Origin: an uncultured Acidobacteriota bacterium | GTDB lineage: Bacteria > Acidobacteriota > Vicinamibacteria > Vicinamibacterales > UBA2999 | Length of the DNA stretch: 64,000 bases | Assembly: GCA_963723005.1 (NCBI GenBank) | Contig: CAVRPA010000006.1 | Coordinates: 10,580 to 74,579, forward strand | Reading direction: 5' to 3' | Shown here: in pieces, positions 6,884-58,492 of the stretch | How the letters are laid out: each line of letters begins with the position of its first letter | How positions within the stretch are numbered: the stretch's first letter is position 1 | The notes under the pieces: generated by a model | Seen by the model: the letters and a program-made list of their open reading frames with translations, nothing else | Database searches by the model: none | What the model was told of the DNA's origin: nothing | Made by a program: the position numbers and the translations under genes

Positions 6884-7049
6884 GACATAGTCGCCGAGAA
6901 GAATTTTCCTTGTGAGCGCCGATCGTGTTTGCTACTCTCAGCTCCAGTACAACTCAACTATTACCAAGCGAAAAGGTGTGCGGTCGATTTCGGCCGTGCG
7001 CAAAGCTGAAACCCTCGCGATCACTTGCGGGATGATTTAGCTGCCGAAC

Positions 7050-8050: not shown

Positions 8051-8113
8051 CGAACCCTGGAACCCTGCAACCCTAGAACCCTAGAACCTACGAACCTAGA
8101 GCCCTAGGACCCC
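8051..8113. repeat. tandem about 8-nt repeat array (RGAACCCT-like, about 8 units)
   Basis: Sequence cgaaccct ggaaccct gcaaccct agaaccct agaacct acgaacct agagccct aggacccc. Lies between convergent stops at 8045 and 8123. Confidence 0.9.
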
Positions 8114-8122
8114 TCCGCCCGT

Positions 8123-10849
8123 TCAGAACTTCTCGGGCACCCGCTTGTACGCGTAGTTGGGATCCTTGTAGCCACCGGCCTCCTGCCGTTTCGGCAGCTT
8201 CACCTTTTCGCGCGGCGTCTTTTCGTACGGGATCTGCCCGAGCAGGTGCGAGATGATGTTCAGCCGCGCCCGCTGCTTGTCGTTCGAATCCACGACGTAC
8301 CACGGGGCGAAGCCGGTGTCGGTGGCGGTGAACATGTCGTCGCGAGCCCGCGAGTAGTCGTACCAGCGGCTGTAGGACTTCAGATCCATCGGCGACAGCT
8401 TCCAGATCTTCCGCCCGTCGTCGATGCGGGCCTCGAGACGGCGGGTCTGCTCCTTCTCGCTCACCTCGAGCCAGTACTTGAGCAGGATCACTCCGGAGTC
8501 CACCATCACCTTCTCCCACAGCGGGACCATGTTCAGGAACTTCTTGACCACCTCCTCCGAGGAGAAGCCCATCACGCGCTCCACGCCGGCGCGGTTGTAC
8601 CAGCTGCGGTCGAAGATCACGATCTCGCCGGCCGCTGGCAGGTGCGGCAGATAGCGCTGCACGTACATCTGGCTCTTCTCGCGGTCGGTGGGTGCCGGCA
8701 GCGCGATGGTCCGGAAGACGCGCGGGCTGACGCGCTCGGTGATGGCTTTGATCGTTCCGCCCTTGCCGGCGCCGTCGCGGCCCTCGAAGATGACGCAGAC
8801 CTTGAGACCCTTGTACTTGACCCATTCCTGCAGCTTGACGAGTTCGGCGTGCAGCTTGGCCAGCTCCTTCGCATAGGCCTTGCCGGTTAGCTTCTCCTTT
8901 GACGGCGCGGCCTTCTCAGGCGGGTCGCTCGCCGCAGTCGCGGCCGGAGCTCCAGCGGCCAGCGCGGCGTCGCCGTCCTTCTTCTTGTTCTTCTTGTTCT
9001 TCTTCTTATCGCCCGTCTTCTTGTTCTTGCCCTTCGCGTCCTGCAGGGCGATTTCCGGCGTGTCCGCAGCCTGTTGGCCGCCGTTGGCGCTGGCCTTGTC
9101 CTTCTTGTTCTTCTTGGCGGCTTGGTCTTTTTTCATGATGCAGTCCTCTGACTCGGAAGGAGTGCTGAATGGAACAGGACGCGCGGCGTACTGCCGATCG
9201 TACTCGCGAACGGCCGCGTCAAGGTTCGCGAACATGCGTGGCTGACCGAGCCGTTCGCCAAGCGGCGAGCGGCGCACGACGGCCAGGGTTTCGGGATTGA
9301 GCCCGGCCAGCCACAGGGTGGTGCCCTCGGCCGCCAGCCTCTCGTCAATCCCCGCGAGCGTTTGCAGCGCGGTGTACTCGATGTCGAAGATCGCACGGCC
9401 GTCGATGACCAGTACCTGCGGGCGCGACAGATCGATGAGAGCCCGAACCTTGTCGGCCACCCGCTCCGCATTGGCGAAGAAGAGCCGGCCTTCGGTGCGC
9501 AGGATCAGCAGGCCCGGCCACGTCTCATCATCGGGGTGCTCCGGCGTGAGGGGGCGGAACACGGTCGTGCCCCGCTTGCGTCCGAGCGGATACACCGCGG
9601 GGTTGTAGGCCTGCTGGGCCAGCGACAGCAGCGAGACGATCACGGCCACCATGATGCCCCTGAGCGTCCCGAGCAAGACGACCCCAGCAAAGGCCGTGAG
9701 CGCCCAGAGGAACTCGGTGCGCCGCACCCGGCTGATGGCGGCGAACTCGGCCGGCTTGATCAGCTCGATGGAGTAGACGATGACGACGGCGGCGAGCGCC
9801 GCCTGGGGCATGAGCGCGATCACCGGCCCGAGCAGGAGAAGCGTCGCCAGGGCCATCGTGGCGGTGATGAGCGCCGACACTTGACTGCGCGCGCCGGCCA
9901 GGCGATTGACGGCGGTCTGCGACGTGCCGCCGCCGGCCGGCATCGCCCCGAGCAGGCCACCCACGACGTTGGCCGCGCCGAGGGCCAGCAGTTCCTGATT
10001 CGGGTCCGGCCGCGGCTCGGACGAGGCGCCGAAGGCGCGCGCCGCGGCAATCGTCTCGGTAAAACTCATCAGCGCAATGCCGGCGGCCGCCGGCCACATC
10101 TGGTTCGCCAGATCGAAATGCGGCAGCATCAGCGTCGGTAGCCCTCCGGCCACCTGGCCGGCCGTGGCGACGCCCATCGCCTGCAGGCCCAGCACCGCGG
10201 ACGCGGCGATCGCCATCGCGATCGCGACCAGCGGCGCGGGCGCTTTCGGCGCGAAGTGCTCGAGCCCCACCAGCAGCACCAGCAACGCGGCGCCGAGGAG
10301 GAGCGTCGGGATTGAGGTCTCGGGGAGTTGCTGGGCGAGGGCGATCAGGTCACGGAAGAAGCCGGCTTTCTCGAAATGAACGCCCAGCAGCTTCGGAAGC
10401 TGGTCAACGACAATGACCAGCCCGATGCCCGACTTGAAACCGGTGAGGACCGGATCCGAGATGAAGTTCGCGATGAAGCCGAGTCGGAGCAACGAGCCGA
10501 GCGTCAGTAGAGCGCCCACCAGCACCGACAGCGTGGCCGCCGCGACGATCAGGGTCGCGGGGTCTCCGCCCGGCGCCGAACGCGCAAGCTGCGAGGCCGT
10601 CAGAATGGCAATGGTGGTGGTCGTGCTGACGCTCAGGGGACGCGACGTTCCGAGCAGGGCGTAAACGGCCATCGGCACGATGGCGGTGTAGAGGCCGATG
10701 TGCAGCGGTAGCCCGGCGATGGTGGCAAACGCCATTGCCTTCGGTACGACTACAGCCGCCGTCGTGAGGCCGGCCGTGAAATCCGGCCGGAACCAGGAGC
10801 GGGGATAGAGTCGCAGCCAGTCGACGCTCGGAAAAAGTTTCACCGACAC
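8123..10849 (-). CDS. SulP-family anion permease with STAS domain, fused in frame to a PPK2 polyphosphate kinase
   Basis: Uninterrupted 908-aa ORF. SulP N-terminus (GLTTAAVVVPKAMAFATIAGLP). STAS segment (LILRTEGRLFFANAERV). Lys-rich linker. PPK2 core (VIFEGRDGAGKGG, FDRSWYNRAGVERV). Confidence 0.8.
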   Translation of the reverse strand: MSVKLFPSVDWLRLYPRSWFRPDFTAGLTTAAVVVPKAMAFATIAGLPLHIGLYTAIVPMAVYALLGTSRPLSVSTTTTIAILTASQLARSAPGGDPATLIVAAATLSVLVGALLTLGSLLRLGFIANFISDPVLTGFKSGIGLVIVVDQLPKLLGVHFEKAGFFRDLIALAQQLPETSIPTLLLGAALLVLLVGLEHFAPKAPAPLVAIAMAIAASAVLGLQAMGVATAGQVAGGLPTLMLPHFDLANQMWPAAAGIALMSFTETIAAARAFGASSEPRPDPNQELLALGAANVVGGLLGAMPAGGGTSQTAVNRLAGARSQVSALITATMALATLLLLGPVIALMPQAALAAVVIVYSIELIKPAEFAAISRVRRTEFLWALTAFAGVVLLGTLRGIMVAVIVSLLSLAQQAYNPAVYPLGRKRGTTVFRPLTPEHPDDETWPGLLILRTEGRLFFANAERVADKVRALIDLSRPQVLVIDGRAIFDIEYTALQTLAGIDERLAAEGTTLWLAGLNPETLAVVRRSPLGERLGQPRMFANLDAAVREYDRQYAARPVPFSTPSESEDCIMKKDQAAKKNKKDKASANGGQQAADTPEIALQDAKGKNKKTGDKKKNKKNKKKDGDAALAAGAPAATAASDPPEKAAPSKEKLTGKAYAKELAKLHAELVKLQEWVKYKGLKVCVIFEGRDGAGKGGTIKAITERVSPRVFRTIALPAPTDREKSQMYVQRYLPHLPAAGEIVIFDRSWYNRAGVERVMGFSSEEVVKKFLNMVPLWEKVMVDSGVILLKYWLEVSEKEQTRRLEARIDDGRKIWKLSPMDLKSYSRWYDYSRARDDMFTATDTGFAPWYVVDSNDKQRARLNIISHLLGQIPYEKTPREKVKLPKRQEAGGYKDPNYAYKRVPEKF

Positions 10850-10984
10850 AGCTGTGCGCGCGCGCCGGGGACCCGACGGCGGACGCCAAGCATAGCGCCG
10901 GGCCCGAACACAGTCCAGCTTGAGCGCGACGTGTCGGTGCTCACAGCGTTCGTCCCCGCAAAGTGACAGCGATCGCCCGCCGTA

Positions 10985-12359: not shown

Positions 12360-14807
12360 ATGGGATTCCTTACCGATCTCCGGTTCGCTGCTCGGTCGCT
12401 CTCCCGGGTGAAAGGGCTCACCATCACGGTGATCCTCACCCTGGCGCTCGGCATCGGCGCCAACGCCGCGATCTTCACCGTGGTCCAGGGCGTGCTGTTG
12501 AAGCCGCTCGTCAACCGCGACGAGGAGCGCCTGGTCTACATCCGCCAGAGCGCCCCCGGCATCGGCGTGGAGAACGCCGCGTTCTCGGTGCCGGAGCTGA
12601 AGGACCTGCGCGCCGGCGTCACCACGCTCACCGCGTTCGGCGACTTCTCGGCCCTCGAGTTCACGATGGTCGGGCTGGGCGAACCTCGCGTGGTTCGATC
12701 CGGCGTGGTCGGTGGCTCGTACTTCGAGGTGATGGGGCTGCGCCCGGTGCTCGGGCGGCTGATCGACGCCACCGACGATGGGCCGGGTGCCGCGGGCGCC
12801 GTGGTGCTGACGCATCGCTTCTGGACGACGGCCCTCGGCAGCGATCCGGCGGTTCTCGGCAAGACGGTGCGGCTTGGCGAGCGGTCGGCCACGATCATCG
12901 GCGTGCTGCAACCGTCGGTGCCCTACCCGTCGGAGACGGAGATCATGGCCAACGTCGTCACCAGCCCGCATCACCTGGACGCGACGATGGTGGATGGCCG
13001 CGTGCATCGCATGACCGAGCTCTTCGGCCGGCTGGCGCCGGGCGCCGATGTGGACGCAGCCCGGGCCGAGTTACGGGCCGTGCACCGGGCGGCGGTCCAG
13101 TCACACCCCGAAGCCTATCCGAAAGACGCGGACTTCCGTATCGACGCGGTACGGCTTCGCGATCAGATCACGTCCTCGGCGCGCACCGTGCTGCTGGTAC
13201 TGCTGGCCGCCGCGGCGCTGGTCTTCGTCATCGCCTGCTCCAACGTGGCGAACCTGATCCTGGCGCGGTCGGTCCGCCGCGAAGGCGAGCTGGCGATTCG
13301 CGCGGCGCTCGGCGCCGGCGCCGGCGCGCTCCGTCGCACGCTGCTGGCCGAGAGCCTGCTCCTCTGCGGAGCTGGCGCCATCCTCGGCGTGCTGATCGCG
13401 CGGCCGATGGTCGCCGTGCTGTCGCGCTACGCGTCGCGCTTCTCGGTGCGGGCGCTGGATCTGACGGTGGACAGCAGCCTGCTGTGGGTGGGCACCGGGC
13501 TCGCGCTGGTCGCGGCGGTGCTGCTGGCGTTCGTGCCACGGCTGCCGTCATCGGACTCGACCAACGGCTTCGGCCTCAATACCGGCAGCGTGCGCGTCAC
13601 TTCCGGGACCAATCGCCGGCTGCGCCTGTTCGCGGTGACGCAGATCGCCGCCTCGTTCGTGCTGCTGGCCGGTGCCGGCATGTTGATGACCACACTCCTC
13701 CGGCTGCAGGCCGCGGAGACCGGTTTCAACCTGCGGCAGGTGCTGGTCGTGAACGTGCCGGTGTCGTTCGATCGGCCGAAGGCGGAGACCTCGGCGTTCT
13801 ATCGCGAGGTGATCCGGCGGGTCTCCGAGCTGCCCGGGGTGGAACGCGCCGTCGTCGGCACGCAGGTGCCGTGGCGCGACGCGGGCGCGTTTGGCCCTGG
13901 CTTCCAGTTCACCACGGAGGGTTACAGCAAGGCGAACGGCGAGGAGGATCCGCGCGGCCGCTTCCGCGCCATCTCGCCCGGGTTCTTTGGCGCGCTCGGC
14001 GTGCCGATCATCGCGGGCCGCGATTTCAACGAGGGCGATCGCGCCGACACCGAGTCGGTGGTGATCGTCAGCCAGAGCGTGGCGCGTCGCATGTTCAACT
14101 CGGGCGAAGCGCTGAACCGCCACGTGTCGTGGACGGATCCGGTGATGGCCTTCGTCGGCATCCACACCAAACCCCGCCGCATCATCGGCGTGGCCGCCGA
14201 CGTGGACGACGAGAACGTGGTGCCGGGACCGGCGATGACGGTGTATCACCCGATGGACCAGGAGTTCGGCGGCGGCCGCCTGTTCGTGCACACGAAGGCC
14301 GACCCCTACACGCTGGTTCCGCCGATCACCAAGCTGATCCGGGATCTCGCGCCAGACCAGCCGGTCGAACGGGCCGCGACCCTCGAAGATGTCCGGGCCG
14401 AAGTGCTGGCGCCCAACCGACTCAACGCGCTGGTGTTCGGCGGCTTTGCCGGCGTCGCGCTGATGATCTCGATCGTCGGCGTGGCCGGCGTGCTGGCGTT
14501 CTCGGTGAGCGCGCGGATGCGTGAGTTCGGCGTGCGGCTGGCGATCGGCTCCGAGCCTCGCCACCTGCTGGCGCGGGTGCTCCGCGAAGGTGCCGTGATT
14601 GCGGGCATCGGCGTCAGCCTTGGCGTGGTCGGCGGGTTCGTCCTCGCGCGGCTCGCGGGCGGCTACCTGTCCGAAGTGACGCTGCCTGGCGCCGTCCCGC
14701 TGCTCGGCGCCGCCGCGGTGCTGGTGGCCGCCGCGGTGCTGGCCTCGCTGGTGCCGGCCTCGCGCGCGGCCAGGGTGGATGTGATGCAGGCGCTGCGCAC
14801 CGACTAG
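12360..14807 (+). CDS. ADOP-type duplicated MacB/FtsX-like ABC transporter permease
   Basis: Intact 815-aa ORF. N-terminus MGFLTDLRFAARSL. Two MacB periplasmic-domain plus FtsX 4-TM modules. Confidence 0.85.
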   Translation: MGFLTDLRFAARSLSRVKGLTITVILTLALGIGANAAIFTVVQGVLLKPLVNRDEERLVYIRQSAPGIGVENAAFSVPELKDLRAGVTTLTAFGDFSALEFTMVGLGEPRVVRSGVVGGSYFEVMGLRPVLGRLIDATDDGPGAAGAVVLTHRFWTTALGSDPAVLGKTVRLGERSATIIGVLQPSVPYPSETEIMANVVTSPHHLDATMVDGRVHRMTELFGRLAPGADVDAARAELRAVHRAAVQSHPEAYPKDADFRIDAVRLRDQITSSARTVLLVLLAAAALVFVIACSNVANLILARSVRREGELAIRAALGAGAGALRRTLLAESLLLCGAGAILGVLIARPMVAVLSRYASRFSVRALDLTVDSSLLWVGTGLALVAAVLLAFVPRLPSSDSTNGFGLNTGSVRVTSGTNRRLRLFAVTQIAASFVLLAGAGMLMTTLLRLQAAETGFNLRQVLVVNVPVSFDRPKAETSAFYREVIRRVSELPGVERAVVGTQVPWRDAGAFGPGFQFTTEGYSKANGEEDPRGRFRAISPGFFGALGVPIIAGRDFNEGDRADTESVVIVSQSVARRMFNSGEALNRHVSWTDPVMAFVGIHTKPRRIIGVAADVDDENVVPGPAMTVYHPMDQEFGGGRLFVHTKADPYTLVPPITKLIRDLAPDQPVERAATLEDVRAEVLAPNRLNALVFGGFAGVALMISIVGVAGVLAFSVSARMREFGVRLAIGSEPRHLLARVLREGAVIAGIGVSLGVVGGFVLARLAGGYLSEVTLPGAVPLLGAAAVLVAAAVLASLVPASRAARVDVMQALRTD

Positions 14808-15271: not shown

Positions 15272-16105
15272 CTACCCGTCTGCCGGCGCCGCAGCCTTCA
15301 CGAGCCTGGCGCCGTTCTCATCGACCGGCCGGCGGACACCTTCAACAGGCTCGTCGCACCACCGTCACCAGGACCTCCGCCACTGGCCACGGCGCTTCGT
15401 TGGCGACGGCCCAGATGGTCACGCGTCCCGTGGACGAGGTCTTGCCTTTCGTCCACGGCGTTGCCGGCGCGAACTCCGGGTAGATGAAGAGGTTCTCTTC
15501 GGCAGCGGCTTCGCCGAGCGGCGTGAACGTGAATCGCGGCACGATGTACAGCAGGCTGCGATCGAGCCGGTTCACCCGTGGATCTCGAACTGGGCGCCGC
15601 GGCGGGCGACGTCCATGCTCATCGCGACCAGGGTGTGCCACGACACGGACCCCGCGCTGTTGAGATGCCGGCGGCGCACCTCGATGCCGTAGGGATGAAG
15701 CGGAGGCTCGGGCGCCACGCCCGCCCGTCGCCGCCGCTGACGCCGCTGCACGGTGATGAGCGCCACCGGCACGCGTTCGGGCCGCTTGACGCCGGGCGTG
15801 CGTCGCAGCACGTCGAACCGCATGACCAGCGCATCGCCTTCCAGTCGAGGAAGGCCGAAGTGCAGCTGCCGATCCGTCAGCCGCGCCGGTTGCTTGAACT
15901 CGAGATCGATGCTGCTGACGCCCTGCAGTAGCGAGCGCTTGGCCAGGTAGTGCCACAGGGTCTCGATGACCACTCCGCGCTGACGCTGCCGGCGGAGTTG
16001 AGCATGCTGGAGTCGATGATCCTGTGCCGGGTGTCGAGCACGGCCGTGATGGCCTCGCCGGCCACCCGACGCCCGCCTGACTTCCGCTGCCCGCAATGGT
16101 TTCAT
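15272..16105 (-). pseudogene. decayed paralog of the 20996..21844 tandem hotdog-like gene
   Basis: Roughly 93-95% nucleotide identity to 20996-21844 by eye. Four indels relative to that copy: three 1-nt deletions and one 2-nt deletion. The product is split over three frames. Confidence 0.8.
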
Positions 16106-16211
16106 CCTGTACTCCTGTGACCAACAAAGGTACGTCATCGCGGGTCAGCCAAGCACCGGAGCGCAACCAGCCGGCTCTGCCGGTCAGGGTCGACTTATAA
16201 TCCCGCCGTCC

Positions 16212-18834
16212 ATGGCTCTGGCGCCCGGCACCCGTCTAGACAGCTACGAAATTCTGTCCCTGATCGGCGCGGGCGGGATGGGTGAGGTGTACCGCGCCCG
16301 CGACACGCGGCTGGAGCGCGACGTCGCCGTCAAGGTGCTACCGGTCGGCGTCGCCGCCGACCCCGACCGCCTGAAGCGCTTCGAGCAGGAAGCGCGCGCC
16401 ACCGCCGCTCTCAATCACCCTAACATCCTGCACGGTCTTCGACATCGGCAGCGTCGACGGCGTCGCCCTACGTCGTCTCCGAGCTGCTGGAGGGTGAGAC
16501 GCTGCGCGGCGCGCTCGAGCGGGGCGCGCTGCCGCCGCGCAAGGCCATCGAGCTGCGGCGTCGCAGCTGGCGCGACGGTCTCGCCGCCGCGCACGAGCAG
16601 CGGCATCGTGCACCGCGACCTGAAGCCCGACAACATCTTCATCACCGCGCGAAGGGCGCGCTGAAGATCCTGGACTTCGGCCTCGCGCGAAGCTGCAGCG
16701 ACGCGACGCCGCCGGCGATCGGACGATGACCACGTCGACCGTCAGCCGCGGCACGACGCCGGGCATGGTGCTCGGCACGATGGGCTACATGTCGCCGGAG
16801 CAGCTGCGCGGGGACGCCGTCGATCATCGGTCCGACATCTTCAGCGTTCGGCGCGGTGCTCTACGAAATGATCGCCGGCAAGCGCGCGTTCCACGGGCGA
16901 CACCGCGCCGATACCATCAGCGCCATCCTCAGCGGCGAGCCGCCCGAGCTGGAGGGCGCCGCCCGCAACATCCCGCCGATCCTCGACCGCCTGGTGCGGC
17001 GCTGCCTCGAGAAGTCGCCTGAGGAACGCTACCAGTCGGCGCGCGATCTCGCATTCAATCTCGAGTCGTTGTCGGCGATCTCGTCGGGCGAACCGAGCGC
17101 CGCGGGCGAGCGTGCGGCTGCGCCGTCACTCCTCCGGTGGTGATCGGGCGGTCGCGAGCGGCGTTGCTCGCGGCAGCCGCGTTGCTCGCCGGCCTGCTGG
17201 CGGGCGCTGCCTCGGCGTCGTGGACCGGCTCGGGCCGCGACCCGGCCGACCCCTCTGACGGCGTACCGCCAGCTGACGTTCCGGCGCGGGCTGATCACCA
17301 GCGCGCGCTTTTCACCAGACGGGCAGAGCGTCATCTATGAAGCGGGATGGGAGGGACGCCCCGCAACCCTGTATACGGCGCGAGTGGACAGCGTTGGCGA
17401 GCAGCCGCTGGCCACGGAGGGCGTCATCGAGGACGTCTCCAGCAGTGGCGAGATGGCCTTGCTGATCGGGGTTGAGCGGATTATCTCCTTCATGACGCAG
17501 GGGACGCTCGCCCGAATGCCACTCTCTGGCGGCGCCCCGCGCGCCATCCTTCAGCGTGTCAGCAGCGCCAGTTGGGGTCCCAACGGCCAGCAGCTCGCCG
17601 TGACGCGGATGTCACTCACCCGCCGCTGGAGCCTCGAGTTCCCGGTGGGCACGGTCCTGTATGAAACGAACGACTGGATTGAGAAGCCACGGGTATCGCC
17701 GGACGGGAGCCGTGTAGCCTTTCTCGAACACCCTGGCGGCGGCGGTGACAACCGCGGGCACGTCTCCATCGTCACGGCGACGGGTGAGAAGTCCGATGTG
17801 TCAGGTGAATACGCGGCGCTGGCGGGTCTCGCGTGGCACCCCAACGGGGAACTCTGGTTCAGCGCCAGTCGCAGCGGCGCGTTGATGCAGCTGTTCGCGG
17901 TCCGCCCCGGAGGCGAGGTGCGGCAGGTCGCGGCTCTCCCCGCATCAGTGGTGTTCCAGGACCTGCGGGCCGATGGCGCCGTGCTGCTGGAGGCTCAGGC
18001 CCGTAAGGCCCGGATGCTGGTAAAAGTTCCCGGCGAGGCGGACGAGCGTGACATCAGCTGGTTCGACTATCCGCTCCTGAGAGACATGTCGGCCGACGGC
18101 AAGTACATCCTGTTCGATGAGGAAGGGGAGGGCGGTGGCGCAAGCTACAGCGTCTTCATGCGGCCGATCGATGGCGGGCCGGCGGTGCGCCTGGGCGAAG
18201 GCTATGCCGGATCCTTCGCACCCGACATGCAACACGTGCTGACGTGGACGCCAGGCCTCGGCCGCTCCACGGTGGTGCCGATCGGGCCTGGGGAACCGCG
18301 AGTCGTGGCTGCCCTCCCGGACGGCTTCACGCCCATGGGCGCGGGGCGCTGGTGGCCGGACAGCCGGCGGGTGCTCATCCTTGGGCGCCCTCCGGAGGGG
18401 ATTCCGCGCACGTTCGTGTACGACCCGAGTTCCAATCAGACGACGCCGCTCACTCCTGAGGGTGTGTTCGGCACGCTGATCTCGCCAGACGGGACCCGGC
18501 TGGTGGTGACCGACAAGGGCGGGCGCCATCTGTTCACGATCGACAGTGGCAGGATGGCGGACATCAAGGGATTGCTGCCGGACGACCAGGTGGTGCGGTG
18601 GTCCGGTGATGGACGCGCGCTCTTCGTCTCGCGCGCGCTGTCCGCGCGTCAACGGGACCTGGCGCGCCTCGATCTCACCAGCGGACGGCGTGAGCCGATC
18701 GCAACCTTCGGGCCCGGCGGATGGCGCGGGTGTGAGCCTCGTTTCGACTCCTGTGGTGTCGGCCGACGGAAAGACATATGCGTATCATTATCAGCGTCCT
18801 CTCGGATCTCTTCTTCGCCACCGGCCTGAAATAA
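16212..18834 (+). pseudogene. Ser/Thr protein kinase - TM - TolB-like beta-propeller gene, heavily frameshifted
   Basis: Kinase motifs are scattered over all three frames ([39 protein letters not shown]). A TM segment follows, then a 1.4-kb propeller ORF. I trace at least 10 frame changes. Confidence 0.8.
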
Positions 18835-18855
18835 CGCGACGTTCTGGAGGCACTC

Positions 18856-20882
18856 ATGACGCGCTCCGTGTTGCGAACACCCGCGACCCTGTTCGCCGCT
18901 TCGCTGTGCTGGATGACCGTGGCACTGTCCGGCCAATCGGGCATCCGCGGCGGCGAGTGGACAACCTATGGCGGCGACCTTGGCAACACCAGGTACGCTC
19001 CGCTCGATCAGATCACCGCCGCCAACTTCAGCTCGCTCGAGGTCGCGTGGCGCTTCAAGGTGGACAGCCTCGGCCCCAGGCCGGAGTTCAACCTCCAATC
19101 GACGCCGCTCATGGTGAAGGGGGTGCTGTACTCAACGGGCGGCACGAGGCGAGCCGTGGTCGCGCTCGACGCCGCCACCGGCGAGCAGTTGTGGATGCAC
19201 AGCGAGCACGAGGGGCGCGCGTGGGGCGGCCGCCCCGCGGCAGTTCTCCGGACGTGGGCTCGCGTATTGGACTGACGGCACCGAAGAGCGCATCCTCTAC
19301 GTCACACCCGGGTACCGGCTCGTCGCACTCGACGCAAAGACCGGGATGCGCGTCCCTGGATTCGGGAACGCCGGCATCGTCGATCTCAAGGAGGGGCTCG
19401 ATCAGATCGTGGACCCGATGTCGGGCGAGATCGGCTTGCACGCGGCTCCAGTGGTCGCCAGGAATGTGGTCATCGTCGGCGCGGCCGGGCGTTCCGGCGG
19501 CGTGCCCACCGGGCGTACGAACGTCAAGGGATTCGTCCGCGGCTTCGACGTCCGCACCGGAAAGCGGCTCTGGATCTTCCACACGATTCCCGAGCCCGGG
19601 GAGTTCGGCAACAACACCTGGGAGAAAGACTCCTGGTCGTACACCGGCAACACCGGCGTGTGGGCGCAGATCAGCGTCGACGAGGAGCTCGGGCTCGTGT
19701 ACCTCCCGGTCGAAGTGCCCACCGGCGACTACTTCGGCGGGCCGCGCCCCGGCAGCAACCTGTTCAGCGAATCGCTCGTCGCCGTCGATCTGCAGACCGG
19801 CCAACGCCGGTGGCACTACCAGCTGGTCCATCACGGCATCTGGGACATGGACATTCCGTGCGCGCCGATTCTGGTGGACATCACCGTCGACGGGCGGCCG
19901 ATCAAGGCCGTTGCGCAGCCGACCAAGCAGGCGTTCCTCTACGTCCTCAACCGCGTCACTGGCGAGCCGGTCTGGCCGATCCTCGAGCAACCCGTGGAGA
20001 AGGGGACGGTCCCGGGCGAGTGGTACTCGCCCACCCAGCCGATTCCGACCAGGCCCCCTGCCTACGATCGCCAGGGCTTCACGATGGACGACCTCATCGA
20101 CTTCACGCCCGAGCTGCGCGCCGAGGCCGCGCAGATGGTGTCGAAGTACAAGTTGGGGCCTGTTTTCACGCCACCTGTGGTGAGCCGCATAGACGGGCCG
20201 CTGGCGACGCTCGCCATGGCAACGGCCGGAGGCGGGACCAATTGGCCCGGGGGCTCGTTCGACCCGGAGACGCAAACGTTGTACGTGTCGTCGAACCGGA
20301 ACGTCAGCCAACTCGGTCTGGTGCCCCCTCGGCCAGAGACGAAGAACGACTTGCCATATGTTCAGGGCAATGCGGCCAGCGGCGCGCGCACCACGGGCGG
20401 GTCGGGTTCAGCCGGTCCGGCGGGAGAGGGCGGCAGCGCCCCGCTCACCGTCCGCGGGCTGCCCATCGTGAAGCCACCCTACGGGCAGATCAGCGCCATC
20501 GACCTGAAGCGTGGCGAGATCGTGTGGCAGGTCGCGCACGGCGAGACGCCCGACATTATCCGGAACCACCCGGCGCTCGCGGGTGTGACCATCCCGCGCA
20601 CGGGACGGCTTGGGACGGTAGGCACGCTGGTCACCAGGACGGTCGTCATCGCGGGCGAGTCGGGCTTCGGACCCACACCTTCAGGCGCACGCGGCGCGAT
20701 GCTTCGAGCCTACGACAAGGGCACCGGAGCTGGAGGTCGGCGCCGTGTACATGCCCGCCCCGCAAACCGGGTCGCCGATGACGTACATGTTGAACGGGCG
20801 TCAGCACATCGTCGTCGCCGTGGGCGGCGCCGGCTACAGCGGTGAACTGATCGCGTTCCGATTGCCTGCCGGCGGGGCCTGA
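18856..20882 (+). pseudogene. PQQ-dependent dehydrogenase (beta-propeller quinoprotein), two frameshifts
   Basis: Signal peptide. Motif GEWTTYGGDLGNTRYAPLDQI..LEVAW. Frame breaks near 19237 and 20725. The C-terminus (MPAPQTGSPMTYMLNGRQHIVVAVGG) is readable in the third frame. Confidence 0.75.
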
Positions 20883-29306: not shown

Positions 29307-30341
29307 CTACTGGAACAGCGACTTGCGCAACATCGCGTGGACGCCCTTGGTGACGTCCACCGTCTGGCTGACGCGCAGGTCTACGGCCGCCGAGCACAGC
29401 ACGTAGGCATCGTCGCGCGACAGGCCTTTCTCGGCGACCAGGTACTCGATCATCTCGCGGGTGGCGATCCGGGCGGCTTCGTCCAGATCCGGATCCAGCC
29501 CCACCGTGATCACGTGCGTCGCGGTCTCGATGCGCGCGTAGCGCATCGGCTTCTTCTTGTGCAGCACAATCTCGAGCGTCGTCGCCAGCGACGTTTCGAT
29601 CGCGGTGCCCGACACCTCGCCGTCACCCTGGGCGGCGTGGCCGTCGCCAATCGACAGCAAAGCGCCGGTCACGTGTACCGGCAGGTATATCGTGCTGCCG
29701 GCGCCCAGTTCCTTGATATCGAGATTGCCGACGTGCGGTCCTGGCGGGCCGCTCGAGACCCGGCCGGAGAGGGCGGGCGGTGCCACGCCGATGGATCCGA
29801 AGAAGGGCGCCAGCGGCACGGTCACGCCCGGCGCGAAGCGAGCGGTCTTTCCCGACGGGTCGAAGCGCACCAGCTTGAGGTACGCGTAAGGGAACTCGGC
29901 CGGCAGCGTGCCGCCACCGGGCAGGAACCCGATCACGCCGTAGGGGTGCAGGAAGTCGATGGCGCCAATCCGCACCTCGAGGGAATCTCCGGGCTCGGCG
30001 CCAGTCACGAAGATCGGTCCCGTCAGGGGATGTGCGCCAGGCCCCCGCGACGTGATCGCGGCTTCCACTGCCTTGAGCGAGCCGGGAATCTCGCCGTCCG
30101 GCACGCCGGCCAGCCGCAGTCGTTCCACCCCGCGAGCGGCCATGGTCTCCACCCGGACTCGCGCGCCGGAGACGATAGTCAGCACCGGCTTGACGCTGGC
30201 GTCGTAATAACCCCAGTGCACGTTCGACGGGAGCAGTTTCAACTCGTGCATCTGCTGCGCCTGCACGCCCAGGCCGGCCGCGGCCGCGCACAGACCAAGA
30301 CCGCCGAGCGCGACGGACGCAAGACGAGAGGAGCGGCGCAT
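29307..30341 (-). CDS. acetamidase/formamidase-family amidase, secreted
   Basis: Start set at the ATG at 30341 (MRRSSRLASVALGGLGL signal). Motifs GNLDIKELGAGSTIYLPV and SIGDGHAAQGDGEV. Confidence 0.8.
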   Translation of the reverse strand: MRRSSRLASVALGGLGLCAAAAGLGVQAQQMHELKLLPSNVHWGYYDASVKPVLTIVSGARVRVETMAARGVERLRLAGVPDGEIPGSLKAVEAAITSRGPGAHPLTGPIFVTGAEPGDSLEVRIGAIDFLHPYGVIGFLPGGGTLPAEFPYAYLKLVRFDPSGKTARFAPGVTVPLAPFFGSIGVAPPALSGRVSSGPPGPHVGNLDIKELGAGSTIYLPVHVTGALLSIGDGHAAQGDGEVSGTAIETSLATTLEIVLHKKKPMRYARIETATHVITVGLDPDLDEAARIATREMIEYLVAEKGLSRDDAYVLCSAAVDLRVSQTVDVTKGVHAMLRKSLFQ

Positions 30342-30453
30342 ATTGGCGGAGTATACGGGAATCCCGGGCACCGACGACCGCGCGGGTCTGGTCGCGGCGA
30401 GCGTGCGGTGGCGATCTGTCAGACGTGCAAGGGATCGGATAGAGTGCTCCCCC

Positions 30454-32726
30454 ATGCGCGTGCCTGCCACCCTGTTCGTCGCCGCCTGCTGTGCGCTCGC
30501 CGCGTGCGCACGCCCTGCCGAACCGGCCGCGCCACCGTCGTTCGAGCAACTGGCCAGGACGTCGCTGGCACGCATCGAGGGACGCCTCGCGGTTCCCGGA
30601 CTGAAGGCCGAGGTCGAAGTCCTGCGTGACGAGTGGGGCGTGCCGCACATCTACGCACAGGACACGGACGACCTGTTCTTCGCCCAGGGGTTCGTCGTCG
30701 CCCAGGATCGGCTGTGGCAGATGGAAATCTGGCGGCGCACCGGCGAAGGCCGGGTCGCCGAGCTGGTCGGGCCGGCCGGCATCCCGCACGATCGGCTCAT
30801 CAGGCTGTTCAAGTACCGAGGACCCTACGACGATGCGGAGTGGAGCAGCTACCATCCCGAGGGCAAGCGCATCTTCACCGCCTACGCCGCCGGCGTCAAC
30901 GCGCTGATCGCGTCGGTTGGGGACCACCTCCCTGTCGAGTTCACGCTGACGGGCACGCGGCCGGAGCCGTGGACGCCAGAGCAGTTGCTGCAGCGTGCAC
31001 GCGTCAGCGACTCGCTCGGCGATGCCCGCGCGGAACTGACGCTGGCGAAGAGCGTGGCCATGCTTGGCCTGCAGGAGGCGGATCGGCGCGCTCGCACGGT
31101 GCCGGCCGACAACCTGGCGATACCGGACGGAGTCGAACGTCTCGCTCGTCACCGACGCGGTCATCCAGGCGCTCGATGGCGACATGTACGGAACGCTGCC
31201 GTCGCCCGAGATTCTGCCGCAGTATCGCGACCTGTCGGGCGCCGTGGCTTCGATGGACCTGGGCGTACCGGAAGATCTCGCCGGGCAGCAACAACTGGGC
31301 GATCAGCCGCACGCTGACCGGAACCGGCACCGCCATCATGGTGGACGATCCTCATCGTCAGGTCACCAACCCGGCGCACCGCTACCTGCTGCACCTGAAC
31401 GCCCCGGGCTGGAGCGTGGCGGGCGCCACCGAGGCTCCCCTCGCAGGCGTCATCCGTGGCCACAACGGCCGCGTCGCCTGGGGTCGCACCGCCACCGAAA
31501 CGGATCAGGCCGACGTGTACGTCGAGACGGTCAATCCCGCCAATCCGAACGAGGTGATGTTCAACGGAACGTGGGAGCCGCTCCGTGTGGTCACCGAGGA
31601 GATTTCCGTCAAAGGTGGGCCGTCGCAGAAGGTGACGCTGAAGTTCAGCCGCCACGGGCCGATCTTCCACGAGGATCGCGAGCACCACCTCTCCTACGCC
31701 CTCCGGTCGCAACTGCACGAACGGGGCACGGCAGAGTACCTCGGCGGCCTGCGACTGGACCAGGCCACCTCGGCCCGCGATTGCCTGGATGCGGCGAATT
31801 ACATGCCGATGCCTCCGACCAATCTGGTCTGTGCCGACGCCGATGGCAACATCGCCTTCCGCATCGCCGTCTTCGCTCCGACGCGGAACGGATGGACCGG
31901 GCGACTACCCGTCCCGGGCACCGGGAGGTACGAGTGGGGACCGAAGCGGACGGACCTGCCCTCCGAGTACAACCCCGAGCGCGGCTACATCGCCACGGCC
32001 AATAACAACACGCATCCCCCGCAGTTCGCGCCGCCGTACGCCTACTACCCCGCCGACCGCCGCTATCGACGGCACGAACGCATCGTCCAGATGATTACGA
32101 GCGCGAAGTCGTTCACGATTGACGACATGACGCGCATGCTGCGCGATTCGCTCAACTCGGAAGCCGTTGAAGACCAGCCGCGCTTCCGCGGCTGGAGCAG
32201 TGAAGATCCTGCCGTGGAGCGGGCGCGGGCGATGGTGGACGGCTGGGATGGGGTGATGGATCGCGCCAGCGGCGCCGCGGCCATCTACATGTCGTGGCAG
32301 CGGGTGGCGGATCTCCAGGCCGCCCGAAAGGGCTCGCGTGACGCCGTCGTCACTGGGCTACGGCGCGCGATCGAGGAGATGACGAAGACGCAGGGTGAGA
32401 ACTGGGCCGAGTGGCGATGGGGCCGGATGAACCGTAGCGAGTACCCGCATGCGGTGTTGAGTGCCTTTGACCTGCCGCCCATCGAGCGGCAGGGCGGCGC
32501 GGGCACCGTCAACGCGATCGGATCGGTCTACCGGCTCGTGACCAATTTCAAGGAGCCCGACCAGTCGCTGGTGACCATCGGCCCTGGGAATTCAGGTCAG
32601 CCCGGCAGCCCGTTCTACGACAACCTGCACGCTCTGTGGGGGCGGAACGAATTCTTTCCGCTGCTCTTCACCCGGCCCGCGGTGGAAGCACAGACACGCC
32701 ACCGGCTGACGCTGACGCCGCGTTAG
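30454..32726 (+). pseudogene. penicillin/cephalosporin-acylase family Ntn-hydrolase lipoprotein, 2 frameshifts
   Basis: Lipobox LFVAACCALAAC. Alpha-subunit motif RDEWGVPHIYA. Beta-subunit nucleophile GSNNWAIS. Breaks near 31130 and 31280. Confidence 0.8.
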
Positions 32727-45230: not shown

Positions 45231-45327
45231 TCGAACCGCAGAACCCTTAGAACCGAGAACCCTGAGAACCCTAGAACCCCTCGAACCTTGGAACCTTAGA
45301 ACCTTAGAACCTAGAACCTAGAACCCC
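45231..45327. repeat. tandem 7-9-nt repeat array (GAACCYTA-like, about 12 units)
   Basis: gaaccgca gaaccctta gaaccgagaaccct gagaaccct agaacccctc gaacctt ggaacctta gaacctta gaaccta gaaccta gaacccc. Same unit family as the array at 8051-8113. Confidence 0.9.
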
Positions 45328-53614: not shown

Positions 53615-53758
53615 GCTGAACCTCCCCCGCGCCCGAAGGCGCCCTGCAGCCCATGCCGTGACTTTGGGTGACCGGCGTGAGCGGGCGGACTATAACAGAG
53701 TTGGCCACCGGCCCATCTCGTCGGCGTGCTATCTTCGCGTTCCGCCAGGGGGCATCGC

Positions 53759-55823
53759 ATGAAGCCAGAGATCGCACTCTCGCGCGGCGCGACCATCGCC
53801 GCGACCGGATTGCTCATCGTCCTGCTGGGGCTGCCGCTGGCTCCGCACGCCACCGATGCCCAGCGGCAGGACGCGCCCGCCGGGGAGTGGCGCTACATCG
53901 GCGGCGACGTCGCCCACACGCGGTACTCGCCCCTCGATCAGATCGACGCCACGAACTTCTCGAAACTCGAGGTGGCCTGGACCTGGCGGGGCGACAACTT
54001 CGGCCCTGCCGTGGACGTCCTCTTCCGGTCAACGCCGCTCTACGTGGACGGCCTGCTCTACACCGTCGCCGGCGAGCGGCGTGCGGTCGTGGCCATCGAT
54101 CCCGGCACCGGAGAGACCATCTGGACCTACCGCGAGCCACACACGACGCGCTTCGCGCGCGGCATGCGCAACAACTACGGCAAGGGCGTCGCCTTCGCCG
54201 AGGTCGGCGGGCGGAAGGTGATCTTCTACACCTCGCCGGCGTTCTTCCTGCATGCGCTCGACGCGAAGTCGGGGCAGCACCTGGACGACTGGGGCACGAC
54301 GGTGGCGCTGCCGGGCTTCCCGCGCTCAGGAGTCGTCGACATGCTGCCAGAACTGGTCAAGGACTGGGAGCCCTGGCTCACGTCCGGCTACAAGTACGAT
54401 CCCGATCACGGCATCCCTCGGGATCTCGGCAACCTGTCCACCTCGTCGCCACCCATCGTCGTCAACGGCGTGATCGTGGTCGGCAACGTGCACGAGCAGG
54501 GCTACTACCAGACGCGCATCGAGAACATCCCGGGCGACATCCTCGCCTTCGACGCGAAGACCGGCCAGCCGATGTGGAAGTTCCACGTCATCCCGAGGCC
54601 TGGCGAGTTCGGACACGACACCTGGAAGACCGACGCGTGGAAGCGCACCGGCGACGTGTCGTCGTGGGCGCCGATGTCGGCGGATCCCGAGCGCGGACTC
54701 GTCTACATCCCGACCAACCCGCCGACCATCGACTTCTTCGGCGGCTTCCGCCCTGGCGACAACCTGTTCGGGACCAGCCTGCTCGCGCTCGACGTGAAGA
54801 CCGGCAGGCGCGCGTGGCACTTCCAGATGGTGCATCACGACATCTGGAACTTCGACAATCCCAACGCCCCGGTCCTGATGGACGTCACCATCGACGGGCG
54901 ACGCACGCCGATCGTCGTCGAGACGACGAAGCAGGGCTTCGCGTACACCTTCAATCGTGAAACCGGCGCGCCGATCTGGCCGATCGAGGAGCGCCCGGTC
55001 GCCGCCTCGGATCTGCCGGGTGAACTCCTGTCGCCGACGCAGCCGTTCCCGACCAGGCCCCGGCCGCTGGAGATCCAGGAACTCACCGAGGACGCGCTCA
55101 TCGACTTCACGCCCGACCTGCGGAAGCAGGCGCTGGAGATCGTGAAGAGCTACAAGATCGGGCCGCTCTTCAATCCACCGATCCAGGTGGGCCATCCCTC
55201 CGGGCTTCGCTCGTTCGTCAGCTGTCCCGCGGGCGCCAGCAACATCAACGGTCCTACCGTCGCGGATCCCGAGGCGGGCGTCCTGTTCGTGACCACGCAG
55301 CGGTTGTGCCGGTCGGAGAACATGGTGCCGGGCGAGAAGATGGACGAGCCCGAGGATCCCAAGACCACGGGCCGCACGCGTCGCCCGCTGGGTGGTCGCG
55401 AACCGCGGCGATCTGCGAGGGCCAGAGGGCCTGCCGATCTGGAGGCCGCCGTACAGCCGCATCATCGCCATCGACATGAGCACCGGAAATTTTCTCTGGG
55501 AGATTCCCAACGGCGACACGCCGGAGCACATCCGGAACCACCCGGCCCTGCGCGGGCTGAACGTGCCCCCCACGGGGCAGATGGGACACGCCGTGATGAT
55601 GCCGACGAAGACGCTGTTGGTCACTGCGCCTGGCGGCGATCCCGTGCTGTACGCCGTGGACAAGAAGACCGGTCAGCGCGTCGGTACCGTCAAGCTGCCT
55701 GCACCAGGTCAATACGGCATGATGGGCTACCTGCACCAGGGCAGGCAGCACATCGTCGTCCAGGTCGGGAGCCCGACGCATCCCGGATCGCTCGTGGCGC
55801 TGCGGTTGCGCGACCGGTCGTAG
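53759..55823 (+). pseudogene. PQQ-dependent dehydrogenase paralog, one frameshift
   Basis: Signal peptide. Motif [26 protein letters not shown]. Break near 55375. The C-terminal 143 aa are in another frame. Confidence 0.8.
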
Positions 55824-55857
55824 GTCTCGACGCGGACTTCGTGCCGCCTCGGACCGC

Positions 55858-58381
55858 TCACTCCGACCGGATCGCCGCCATCGGCTCGATCGACGTCGCG
55901 CGCCGCGCTGCGGGGAGGCCCGCCAGTAACGCGACGGTAACGGCAAGCATCGATGCGCCGGCATAAATCACCGGCTCCATGACGCCGAGCGGTTCGGGGC
56001 CAACGGTGAGCGGCGTGCCCATCACGTCCTGCATGGTGCGAATCAGGACCGCCGCCAGGAGCAACCCTCCCGCGACGCCGGGAATCACGAGCTTGACGGT
56101 GTCCGAGAGCATCAGGCCGAACACGCGCCGGCGCGTCGATCCCAGCGCCATCCGTACGGCGAATTCGCGCGTGCGCGTTGCGACCATGAACCCCACGACG
56201 CCGAGGATGCCGAGCGCCGCGAGGACCAGCACCAGCCCGCCCGCAACGCCTACAGCGGTACCCTCGGCAACCAGATCCGCTTTGCTCTTCTCATCGAGCT
56301 CCGATCCGGTGACGATGCCCGGGAAAGCCACCCCTGGCAGCGGCTCGACGCCGAGCCCGCGGAGCGCCGTTTCGAGCGCCGACTTCAATCTCGGTTCGTC
56401 GCCCGGCTCGCCGCGCACGATCAGGTACACCGCCGGGGCGACGTTCTCCGCTGCCCTGGAGACGTCCGGCAGCGGGAGCAGGAGCTGAAGTCGCGTGGTG
56501 GTCAGCTGCGACGAGGCGAAGTCCCCGGTCACGCCGATCACGGTGAATTCCTGGTCACGGCCATCCTCGAGTGAGGCCGTCACGCGCTGCCCAATCGCGT
56601 CGGCGTCTGGGAACAGCTGTCGTGCGAGCGGATCGGAAATGACGGCGACCGCCGCACCCATCAGTCGGTCGTCAGCGGTAATCGTTCGACCGCGCAGCAG
56701 CCGTGCGCCGATCGTCTCGAGGAAGCCTTCGCCGACGCGCGTGACGTGCGCAGTGGCGAACGCCGCTTTGTCGGCGCTCGCGACGCGAAATTCCCGGTAG
56801 TCGAAATCAATGGGCATCCCGTCGGCGATCGCCACCGAGCGCACGCCGACCGCCTGCCTGAGACCGTCGACCGCCGACCGGATGGACCCGGAGTCCTGCT
56901 GCCTGTGCCGACGCGGGGACGCGCGCGCCAGCCAACCCATCGAGCGTCAACCCGTAATCGGCAGTCCGCACGCGATCGATCATCACGCCGCTGATCACGA
57001 GAAACGGCACGGCGATCCCGATCTGCACCATCGCCGCGATGCGATGCGCGCGAATCCTCTGGGTTCCGCCGCGGCCGGCATCGGCCTGCAGCGCCGGCAG
57101 CAGGCTGGGACGGCTGAAGCGAATGGCCGGCAGCAATCCGAAGAGCACACTGACCACGAGGCAGAGCCCCGCCGCAGTCAGGGCGCCGGTCGCATCGAAG
57201 TCGACCTCCGGCGGAACCGGGACGCCCATCCACCATCCGATCAGGGCGGGAATGCCAAACAGCACGACCGCACTGAGCGTGCCGGCTGCGCACGCCAGCG
57301 CGATCGCTTCGAAGAACAGATGCTGCACGAGCGTCCGCCGGTCCGCGCCCAGCGCGGCGCGAATCGACAGCTCGTGCGCTCGCGTGGCGCCGCGGACGAG
57401 CATCATCCCGGAGATATTGACGCAGACGATCAGCAGCACCGCTCCCGCCAGGCTGAGGAGGACGCTGAACACGCGCAACGAGTCCGGACGGCCAGCGGCG
57501 CCCAGCGACGCGTACGGCTCCACCGTGGCCGCCTTGAACTGGTTCGTCTCGGGATATCGGCTCGCCAACGTCGACACGGCCGACGACACCAGCCCGTTTG
57601 CCTGCGTGAGGGTCGCGCCTGGATGCAGCCGGCCGTGAATGCGCACCCATTCGGCGGTTCTGTCGTTTCGAAGATTCGGCTCCTGCCTCAGGCGCGGATG
57701 CCGTTCCAGCGGAACCATCAGCAGCGAAGGGGGCGATTGAACGAAATGGAAGTGGCCGCGAAAGTCCTCCGGCGTGATCCCGACGACGGTATGCGGCACG
57801 CCGTCGACCATCACGGATTTCCCGATGATGTCGGGATCGGCGGCGACCCGGCTCGTCCAGAAGTCATGGCTCAGGATGACGCGCGGCTCGGCCGACGGGG
57901 AGTCATCGAGCGCGGCGTCGAAACCGGGTCCACGCGCGAGCGACACGCCGACGGTACGGAAGTAGTTGGGCGACACGTACAAGGTCGCGACACGAGGGGG
58001 CGCCTTCTGGTCCGTCGTCGGCTCGCCAAATTCGCTGGATTCGAGGCTCCAGCCCGTGATGTCCATGCCGACGTCCGCGTCGCGCAGTGCCTGATAATCC
58101 GGGTAGGACCATCGTTCCAGCGCCCACACGCCGGCTTTTTCTCGCAGCGGACCCTCTGGAAGGACCAGCACCTCCACCAGCCCGTCGGTGTTGATGCCGC
58201 GCGCCGGAGCGGTAAGGGTGCGGCCCAACGTGGCAAGCGCCACGACCGCGCCCATGCCGATGCCGAGCGAGATGACGCAGACCAGCGTGAAGGCGCGCTC
58301 CTTGGCGAGCGTGCGCATGGCATGCACCAGATCGCGTCTGAGTGACTGAAGCGTATTCATGGAGAAAGAGTTCGCTTCCAT
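55858..58381 (-). pseudogene. second ADOP-type duplicated MacB/FtsX-like permease, one frameshift
   Basis: The N-terminal half (56807..58381) and C-terminal half (55858..56940) lie in different frames, with the break near 56900. The start may be at 58360. Confidence 0.8.
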
Positions 58382-58492
58382 GCGGTCGTGTAGCTTCGAC
58401 GGGCCGTAATTCTACAAAGTTCCATGGCGAGGTGCGCACAACTGGCGCCGAGCGCCGCCCGGCTGCGGGCACCGGGTGAGTACGGGATGATG

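Follow-up and report, generated by a model that had tools for sequence, protein, structure and literature searches.

Permeases of the SulP/SLC26 type with a C-terminal STAS domain include AtSULTR4;1 (7LHV), prestin, the rice phosphate transporter SPDT (9U9F), DauA of E. coli, and cyanobacterial BicA. Genuine fusion proteins are known for SulP, such as the SulP-carbonic anhydrase fusions. Single-domain polyphosphate kinases 2 (PPK2) of class I include FtPPK2 from Francisella tularensis (5LL0, 4YEG), SMc02148 from Sinorhizobium meliloti (3CZQ), and PA0141 from P. aeruginosa, and the signature of this class is an Asn residue following the Walker B motif (N153 in SmPPK2; PMC8776046). Two papers place basic PPK2s and AlgP at polyphosphate granules (PMC9239181; PMC12077175). 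For Accumulibacter, both gene types are merely named among horizontally acquired, highly transcribed genes (PMC11361876). The literature searched on PPK2/polyphosphate kinase with SulP, sulfate permease, or STAS domain yielded no account of SulP and PPK2 as a fusion or as a gene pair.

The analyzed window is a stretch of 64,000 nucleotides. An apparent SulP-STAS-PPK2 ORF was found at 8123..10849 on its minus strand. This ORF starts with GTG and encodes 908 aa without internal stops; the calculated mass of the product is 97.9 kDa. The order of the encoded parts is SulP permease, STAS domain, a Lys-rich stretch of 84 aa, and class I PPK2. A preliminary description of the locus had reported the uninterrupted 908-codon ORF, leaving its strand unstated, as well as the SulP and STAS domains, the single-domain PPK2, and the two PPK2 motifs. 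All of these elements were found again here. The reading that we favor, at better than even confidence, is an assembly artefact, in which an extra C at position 9140 is a consensus indel error merging two separate genes.

The gene for the SulP-family anion permease occupies 9143..10849 (minus strand) and contains 569 codons up to ...SESED, ending at the residue that is last in the orthologs. The Sulfate_transp domain (Pfam: PF00916; nt 9701-10792, minus strand; residues 20-383; E 7.6e-88) is nearly full-length, covering profile positions 1-377 of 380. The C-terminal STAS domain (PF01740; nt 9212-9532, minus strand; residues 440-546; E 2e-12) scores 47.2 bits vs. a cut-off of 22.6. Among the NCBIfam models, TIGR00815 (sulP) gives 370.7 bits, slightly below its cut-off of 380.45, and the DauA and BicA equivalog scores are far under their cut-offs. 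Comparison with AtSULTR4;1 gives 239.6 bits. The permease is 95% identical to protein P0001 and 88% identical to P0002, both of which are stand-alone proteins of 567 aa that end with ...SASED and a stop codon.

The ppk2 gene, encoding a single-domain class I polyphosphate kinase 2, occupies 8123..9136 (minus strand; 337 aa plus stop), with the PPK2 domain (PF03976) at nt 8216-8884 of the same strand (ORF residues 656-878, E 3.5e-91). The TIGR03707 (polyphosphate kinase 2) equivalog model gives 342 bits vs. a cut-off of 301.8, a score from which polyphosphate-dependent phosphorylation of NDP is predicted for this protein. Both GRDGAGKGG (Walker A) and FDRSWYNRAG (Walker B region) are present, and GRDGAGKGG and FDRSW align with FtPPK2. 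The closest solved relatives are the class I enzymes FtPPK2 (5LL0/4YEG) and SmPPK2 (3CZQ), with FDRSWYNRAGVERVMGF identical. The match to FtPPK2 scores 258 bits over residues 76-311, and the FDRSWYNRAG segment is the same in both proteins, including the class-specific Asn.

The low-complexity Lys-rich stretch at 8885..9136 (minus strand; ORF residues 572-655) contains 22 Lys and no Arg among its 84 aa and has a pI of 9.9. It lies outside the fold shared with solved PPK2 structures, the homology beginning only at PPK2 residue 76. Separate PPK2s of related bacteria open with similar basic tails at the start codon, for example MKKDQAAKKNEKDK, VKKKKKKNEK, MKAKKK, and MNRKKK. In the preliminary description this stretch had been taken for a linker. 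The Lys-rich stretch itself is real, but it starts exactly at the start codon of the relatives' PPK2s and is the N-terminal tail of PPK2, not a dedicated linker. Such a tail may tether PPK2 to polyphosphate.

The difference between the window and its relatives was located by pairwise and three-way DNA alignments. At 9140..9142 (minus strand), the window has a TGC codon where the orthologs have a TGA stop. Compared with locus L001, from a conspecific MAG, the C at 9140 is one extra base, and it lies inside this stop; as a result, the SulP stop is destroyed and SulP is shifted into the PPK2 frame. The window reads GAGGAC TGC ATC ATG (GAGGACTGCATCATG) and L001 reads GAGGAC TGA TC ATG (GAGGACTGATCATG), exactly one base different. 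Positions 9134-9142 of the minus strand are TGCATCATG, and the stop-intact form of the junction is TGATCATG. In L001, SulP (567 aa) and PPK2 (343 aa) are separate genes; compared with the window, this SulP is 95% identical in amino acids, the DNA is 93-97% identical, and the gene order is identical. The ...SED-TGA stop is also present in L002, an independent short-read scaffold that is 88% identical, with the junction GAGGAC TGA TCATC ATG (GAGGACTGATCATCATG). PPK2 is called as its own gene in L001 (343 aa), L002 (332 aa), and L003 (316 aa). A stop codon in orthologous loci had been named in the preliminary description itself as evidence against a fusion, and this is what these loci revealed: two genes. 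A frame continuing across the junction was found neither in L001, L002, and L003 nor in any of the 31 loci where a same-strand PPK2 follows downstream; in all 31, SulP has its own stop.

In several of these loci, the two genes are closely spaced. The distance from the SulP stop to the PPK2 ATG is 2 nt in L001 and 5 nt in L002, and ATGA, GTGA, or TAATG overlaps were found in L009, L010, L012, L024, L028, L029, L050, L055, and L057. In the complete genome of Luteitalea pratensis, the genes are 37 nt apart. A Shine-Dalgarno-like GAGGA was read from the window sequence at 9144..9148 (minus strand), within the last SulP codons and 7 nt ahead of the internal ATG at 9136-9134; the GAGGA before this ATG had been pointed out in the preliminary description. 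This motif is kept in L001 and L002, standing 6-9 nt ahead of the ATG across the three loci, and close start/stop spacing with a Shine-Dalgarno site inside the upstream gene is found in the relatives.

The natural state of the locus would then be one operon of two ordinary genes, a SulP/SLC26-type permease with a cytoplasmic STAS domain and, immediately downstream, a class I PPK2 (polyphosphate:NDP phosphotransferase) that has a Shine-Dalgarno site and an ATG of its own and a polybasic tail at the N-terminus. The permease TGA would lie 2-5 nt ahead of the ppk2 start or overlap it. A single extra C placed into this TGA in the assembly would remove the stop and bring SulP into the ppk2 frame, giving the apparent 908-aa fusion. 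Because the stop lies 2-5 nt before the ppk2 start or overlaps it, SulP and PPK2 are probably translationally coupled, yet made as separate proteins. That an indel might have merged two coupled genes was already considered in the preliminary description. The merger by an indel agrees with our results, but the indel was placed there in the last roughly 20 SulP codons and was found here in the stop codon itself. The ATGA proposed there for a shifted frame does exist in the window, where the alternative frame is open from 9471 to 9133 and ends in the TGA of ATGA. As a stop/start arrangement, it is not that of the nearest relatives, in which TGA stands 2-5 nt upstream of ATG, but it was found in somewhat more distant ones, such as L050. 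An ATGA overlap hidden by a frameshift in the last SulP codons was rejected for this lineage, the window SulP being collinear with P0001 and P0002 up to ...SED, with the sole difference inside the stop codon. Programmed frameshifting or read-through was also dropped: the window needs no frameshift, and the relatives simply have a stop.

Frame breaks elsewhere in the assembly, also mentioned in the preliminary description, were confirmed by continuity of Pfam profiles. At least four other genes in the window are broken: a PQQ dehydrogenase (profile 1-87|91-569), a penicillin amidase (1-158|168-675), a second PQQ dehydrogenase (1-461|476-595), and a split MacB/FtsX gene. Breaks in the window lie near 19217, 31072-31158, 55376-55392, and 56810-56946. 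The first PQQ gene is broken at the site of a one-base insertion relative to L001 that is not in a homopolymer. Of the 29 substitutions in this gene between the window and L001, 24 are at third codon positions, before and after the break alike, which argues that the gene is under purifying selection and that an assembly error is the best reading of its break. Since purifying selection on this broken gene is clear, the window assembly probably carries indel errors. In several related MFD MAGs, SulP is broken into 2-5 pieces. Within 9.7 kb, L001 itself has three insertions that are private to it and shift the frame, each duplicating an adjacent base; it comes from a Nanopore-only MAG catalogue assembled with Flye and one Medaka round (PMC12313526). 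The Abhydrolase/DAO-Rieske junction of the window lies beyond the reach of L001.

The main competitor takes the extra C as a true mutation, private to the strain, a tentative reading that we consider possible though clearly less probable than an assembly error. The stop would have been lost through a one-base insertion or, starting from an L002-like TGATCATCATG, through deletion of 2 nt, and a SulP-STAS-tail-PPK2 protein of 98 kDa would be made. Such a fusion would be very recent and confined to the strain level, not a conserved architecture, and free PPK2 may still arise from the retained internal Shine-Dalgarno site and ATG. One-base intergenic indels are common between these strains, so a real mutation at the junction is plausible, and the spacer is naturally variable in length, L001 and L002 differing by 3 nt (one ATC unit). 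Homopolymers are the commonest site of long-read indel errors, and the inserted C at 9140 sits outside any homopolymer. In the approximately 9.7 kb that the window shares with L001 and L002, no window-private difference other than the junction indel changes a frame within coding DNA. A fusion could also be tolerated, since SulP and PPK2, paired in 42 of 55 loci, have a functional link, and it would be topologically feasible, both STAS and PPK2 being cytoplasmic and the tail serving as a flexible linker. Against a private mutation, the fusion is unique among the 31 downstream-pair loci and no fused protein was found in the top matches of two very large searches. Moreover, the Shine-Dalgarno site, ATG, and spacing are unchanged and therefore give no sign of adaptation to a fused state, and at least four more genes on the contig are broken, one or more of these breaks being in a gene under purifying selection. 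We thus infer that the extra base is erroneous and not a mutation private to the strain.

An evolved, conserved multidomain protein, with a SulP/STAS permease covalently joined to PPK2 by a dedicated polyphosphate-binding Lys-rich linker, would agree with the continuous 908-codon ORF, the complete domains, and the functional link indicated by the conserved adjacency of both genes, but it is very improbable given the stop between SulP and PPK2 in every ortholog examined, the single base that separates the window from the nearest one, the occurrence of the Lys-rich stretch as the N-terminal tail of free-standing PPK2s, and the lack of a fused homolog among the best matches from collections of 5.8e9 and 1.84e9 proteins. 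No protein spanning both SulP and PPK2 was found among the best 120 matches of the 5.8-billion-protein search, and none among the best 150 (at least 282 bits) of an exhaustive phmmer search of 1.84 billion representatives. The long matches that were checked have domains other than PPK2 or no extra domain. Scanning of JGI metagenome contigs by pattern for the junction gave nothing in one scan and, in another, six chance matches without SulP or PPK2. The unusual evolved architecture put forward in the preliminary description is thus at odds with two-gene orthologs and with both sets of best matches; judging from these comparisons, the 908-aa SulP-STAS-PPK2 is not an evolved fusion.

As a fusion protein, the ORF carries little weight, being a single-base event and most likely an assembly error, and it serves as a warning that domain architectures from long-read-only MAGs need comparison with relatives. 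The part that may matter is the underlying pair, a SulP/STAS clade together with a class I PPK2 whose tail is polybasic. The two genes are paired in 42 of 55 loci, belonging to Acidobacteriota, Methylomirabilota/Rokubacteria, Burkholderiales, Gammaproteobacteria, and Gemmatimonadota, and this adjacency occurs in three different gene arrangements. No further conserved neighbors (ppx, pit, phoU, etc.) were found around the pair, the next most common family occurring in 8 of 54 loci. Because the adjacency is near-constant over arrangements and phyla, with no other conserved neighbor, genomic context is strong evidence that polyphosphate metabolism is functionally linked to an anion transporter of unassigned substrate. 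No paper describing this two-gene module was found in the literature searched on both genes. Should the extra C be real and the strain make the 98-kDa protein, this would be a natural "Rosetta-stone" fusion, showing that PPK2 acts in physical association with the STAS domain of the permease, and it would mark the conserved module as a transport metabolon; we regard this as an improbable outcome. In that case, the permease might be a phosphate importer of the SulP type that feeds or draws on polyphosphate, as hinted at by a SulP-STAS-PhoU_div fusion among the relatives and by SPDT, a phosphate transporter of the SulP family.

In comparison with known cases, the locus resembles the spurious fusions and splits that arise from indels in long-read-only assemblies, showing a one-base difference from a conspecific and other broken genes on the same contig, but it differs from typical indel errors of this kind in that the insertion lies outside any homopolymer. 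The genuine fusions SulP-STAS-PhoU_div (P0221) and FHA-SulP-STAS (P0212, P0237) indicate that SulP can gain extra cytoplasmic domains tied to substrate fate or regulation; these recur in database representatives, whereas SulP-PPK2 occurs in no representative among the best 120 or best 150 matches. The tail is similar to Lys-rich polyphosphate-associated proteins such as AlgP of P. aeruginosa in being a very basic, Lys-rich, low-complexity segment. In contrast to AlgP, it forms a short N-terminal extension on an enzyme and lacks KPAA repeats, and its polyphosphate binding is conjectural. The window PPK2 shares with FtPPK2, SMc02148, and PA0141 a single PPK2 domain with GRDGAGKGG and FDRSWYN, including the class I Asn, but it has a Lys-rich low-complexity N-terminal tail of 75-85 aa that is absent from the solved structures, and, unlike the named class I PPK2s, it is encoded directly 3' of a SulP permease. 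That permease has the Sulfate_transp and STAS domains and the size (~570 aa) of the SulP/SLC26 transporters listed above. Unlike these named transporters, its substrate is not assignable by family scores, and it belongs to a clade with PPK2 as the only conserved neighbor.

On the minus strand, a GTG-initiated open reading frame of 908 codons occupies 8123..10849 and is free of internal stops; the calculated mass of its product is 97.9 kDa. Three Pfam domains were found in this product: Sulfate_transp (residues 20-383), STAS (residues 440-546), and PPK2 (residues 656-878). The NCBIfam model TIGR03707 (polyphosphate kinase 2) scored 342 bits, above its cut-off of 301.8, and TIGR00815 (sulP) scored 370.7 bits, slightly below its cut-off of 380.45. 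Residues 572-655 (nt 9136-8885), which lie between the STAS and PPK2 domains, form a Lys-rich stretch: its 84 residues include 22 Lys and no Arg, and its pI is 9.9. A GAGGA (9148-9144) stands upstream of an internal ATG (9136-9134), at a spacing of 7 nt. All the sequence features listed in the preliminary description, namely the 908-codon open frame, the SulP/STAS and PPK2 domains, the Lys-rich stretch, and the GAGGA with its ATG, are therefore present.

Stand-alone SulP proteins of about 556-588 aa account for all the top database matches to the 908-aa protein; none of the matches listed is fused. The closest protein, P0001 (567 aa, 95% identity to the window SulP, C-terminal end ...PVPFSTPSASED), is encoded at L001, a locus from a conspecific MAG whose genes follow the order found in the window: MacB/FtsX, AHSA1, ArsR-type HTH, SulP, PPK2, trypsin-like protease, and lactate permease. 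At L001, SulP (567 aa) and PPK2 (343 aa) are separate genes with a gap of 2 nt. The gap is 5 nt in L002, a scaffold with short-read-style naming and an 88% identical ortholog (SulP 567 aa, PPK2 332 aa), and 37 nt in the complete genome of Luteitalea pratensis. The junction reads GAGGAC TGA TC ATG AAAAAAGAC in L001, GAGGAC TGA TCATC ATG in L002, and GAGGAC TGC ATC ATG AAAAAAGAC in the window. In DNA alignments, the window differs from L001 by one extra C at 9140, within the TGA, and its junction corresponds to a 2-nt deletion relative to L002. The SulP stop is lost because the extra C sits inside it, and both genes fall into one frame because ppk2 is read at an offset of 2 from SulP in L001. 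The earlier caveat that two coupled genes had been merged by an indel was essentially right; the indel, which it placed in the last roughly 20 SulP codons, is in fact inside the stop codon.

Genomes of GTDB species representatives were scanned with the SulP part, returning 52 loci; together with the earlier loci, 55 distinct loci were obtained, and the position of PPK2 was set by tblastn. PPK2 is adjacent to SulP in 42 of these loci, belonging to Acidobacteriota, Rokubacteria/Methylomirabilis, Burkholderiales, Gammaproteobacteria, and Gemmatimonadota. It is located downstream on the same strand in 31 loci, immediately upstream on the same strand in 6, and convergently in 5, and is missing from the fetched SulP flanks in 13. 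All 31 loci with PPK2 downstream have a SulP stop of their own; in several of them it overlaps the PPK2 start, as ATGA (L010, L012, L028, L029, L050, and L055), GTGA (L009), or TAATG (L024 and L057). When 1.84 billion representative proteins were searched exhaustively with phmmer, none of the best 150 matches, all scoring at least 282 bits, spanned both halves. The long matches checked contained other domains (PhoU_div, FHA), two PPK2 domains, or nothing recognisable. As judged from the sequences sampled, SulP-STAS-PPK2 does not exist as a natural architecture, and its proposed status as an unusual evolved fusion is not supported.

The Lys-rich stretch was also read differently. In the relatives, the PPK2 start codon leads straight into a tail that is basic, rich in Lys, of low complexity, and variable in length, for example MKKDQAAKKNEKDK..., VKKKKKKNEKADKVKK..., MKAKKKNAKR..., MNRKKKGNGG..., and, in L. 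pratensis, MKKAKDDKG...KKRDKTKKGKKGKKGKR. Since, in addition, similarity to solved class I PPK2 structures starts only at PPK2 residue 76, the supposed linker is the N-terminal tail of PPK2 and did not evolve to connect two domains. By analogy, this tail may keep PPK2 on polyphosphate: polyP granules are the site of basic PPK2s and of the Lys-rich AlgP (PMC9239181), and interactions of lysine with polyP are described in another study (PMC12077175).

The extra C is probably an assembly artefact. At least four other genes in the window are frame-broken, as seen from Pfam profile continuity across frames: a PQQ dehydrogenase (18835-19272 and 19118-20842, plus strand; profile 1-87 and 91-569), a penicillin amidase (30211-31314 and 30630-32723, plus; 1-158 and 168-675), a second PQQ dehydrogenase (53696-55963 and 55293-55820, plus; 1-461 and 476-595), and a MacB_PCD/FtsX double-module permease divided between two ORFs (56810-58411 and 55861-56946, minus). 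A fragment of a Ser/Thr kinase (16050-16661) was noted along with these. In the first PQQ gene, the frame breaks where the window carries one extra base relative to L001, a G at 19217 that is not part of a homopolymer. Codon position 3 holds 24 of the 29 substitutions between the two copies (83%), on both sides of the break; the gene is thus functional and under purifying selection, and its break is best read as an assembly error. The L001 copy is also broken, elsewhere, by three one-base indels within 210 nt, which look like assembly errors too.

L001 (MFD00392.bin.2.132, a GTDB species representative) is likewise error-prone, which was also counted toward assembly error. Its catalogue is Nanopore-only, with assembly by Flye and a single round of Medaka polishing (PMC12313526), and SulP is broken into 2-5 pieces at many MFD loci. 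L001 has three private frameshifting one-base insertions in 9.7 kb (8692, 9419, and 11108), each copying a neighbouring base. They shorten or change PPK2 (at its C-terminus), the trypsin-like protease (224 aa vs. 308-331 aa), and the lactate permease (380 aa vs. 561 aa).

Against these observations, a real private mutation of the strain is possible but less likely. The extra C lies outside any homopolymer and is the sole coding frame-changing difference private to the window in the ~9.7 kb that it shares with L001 and L002. Additionally, spacer length is indel-variable in nature, intergenic one-base indels are frequent between these strains, and a fusion by way of a flexible tail on the cytoplasmic STAS domain might be tolerated. 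Whether artefact, as we favour, or mutation, the extra C amounts to a change of one base at the level of the strain, not to an evolved design.

Several other differences from the relatives were observed. One-base deletions private to the window are located in intergenic DNA, 5' of sulP (10850-10962; at 10939, 10924, and 10878) and in the gap that separates the lactate permease gene from the protease gene (6940-7030; at 7024 and 6990), at sites where L001 and L002 are equal in length; these could be real divergence or locally poor consensus. An alpha/beta-hydrolase ORF (345-1388, plus) and a DAO+Rieske ORF (1363-2964, plus) overlap by 26 nt in different frames, and the L001 ortholog (12822-13704) is called as a single 861-aa Abhydrolase-DAO-Rieske protein, a mirror image of the SulP-PPK2 junction. 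A segment of ~3.5 kb (15288-18795) is missing from L001, where its flanks are 34 nt apart. Within it lie the Ser/Thr kinase fragment (16050-16661), which matches only positions 1-62 of the Pkinase profile, and, behind an in-frame stop, a PD40/WD40-repeat ORF (17144-18826). The segment could represent either the decayed remains of a kinase-propeller gene or an insertion specific to the strain. An 8-nt unit (consensus GAACCCTA; 12 window matches vs. 0.5 expected by chance) is tandemly repeated in intergenic arrays at 8052-8112 (about 7.8 copies) and 45233-45311; L001 and L002 lack the array downstream of ppk2, an insertion of 59 nt.

The fusion itself is of low interest; a modest lead worth following up is the conserved pairing of SulP with PPK2. 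PPK2 is the only recurrent neighbour of this SulP clade across the 55 loci, and the fact that it recurs in several phyla and in three arrangements speaks for a two-gene functional module; no description of the pair was found in the literature. FtPPK2 and SmPPK2 share with the window PPK2 the Walker A, the Walker B, and the class-signature Asn of FDRSWYN. By the signature Asn criterion (PMC8776046), the window PPK2 is assigned to class I, for which the predicted activity should be the interconversion of polyP and NDP with NTP. FHA-SulP-STAS proteins (P0212 and P0237) were also seen. Phosphate may be involved in the module, and some SulP transporters may be tied to phosphate handling. These are hints and no proof, given by P0221 (776 aa), a SulP-STAS-PhoU_div (DUF47) fusion with 37% identity to the window SulP, and by the rice phosphate transporter SPDT, a SulP family member among the solved relatives.
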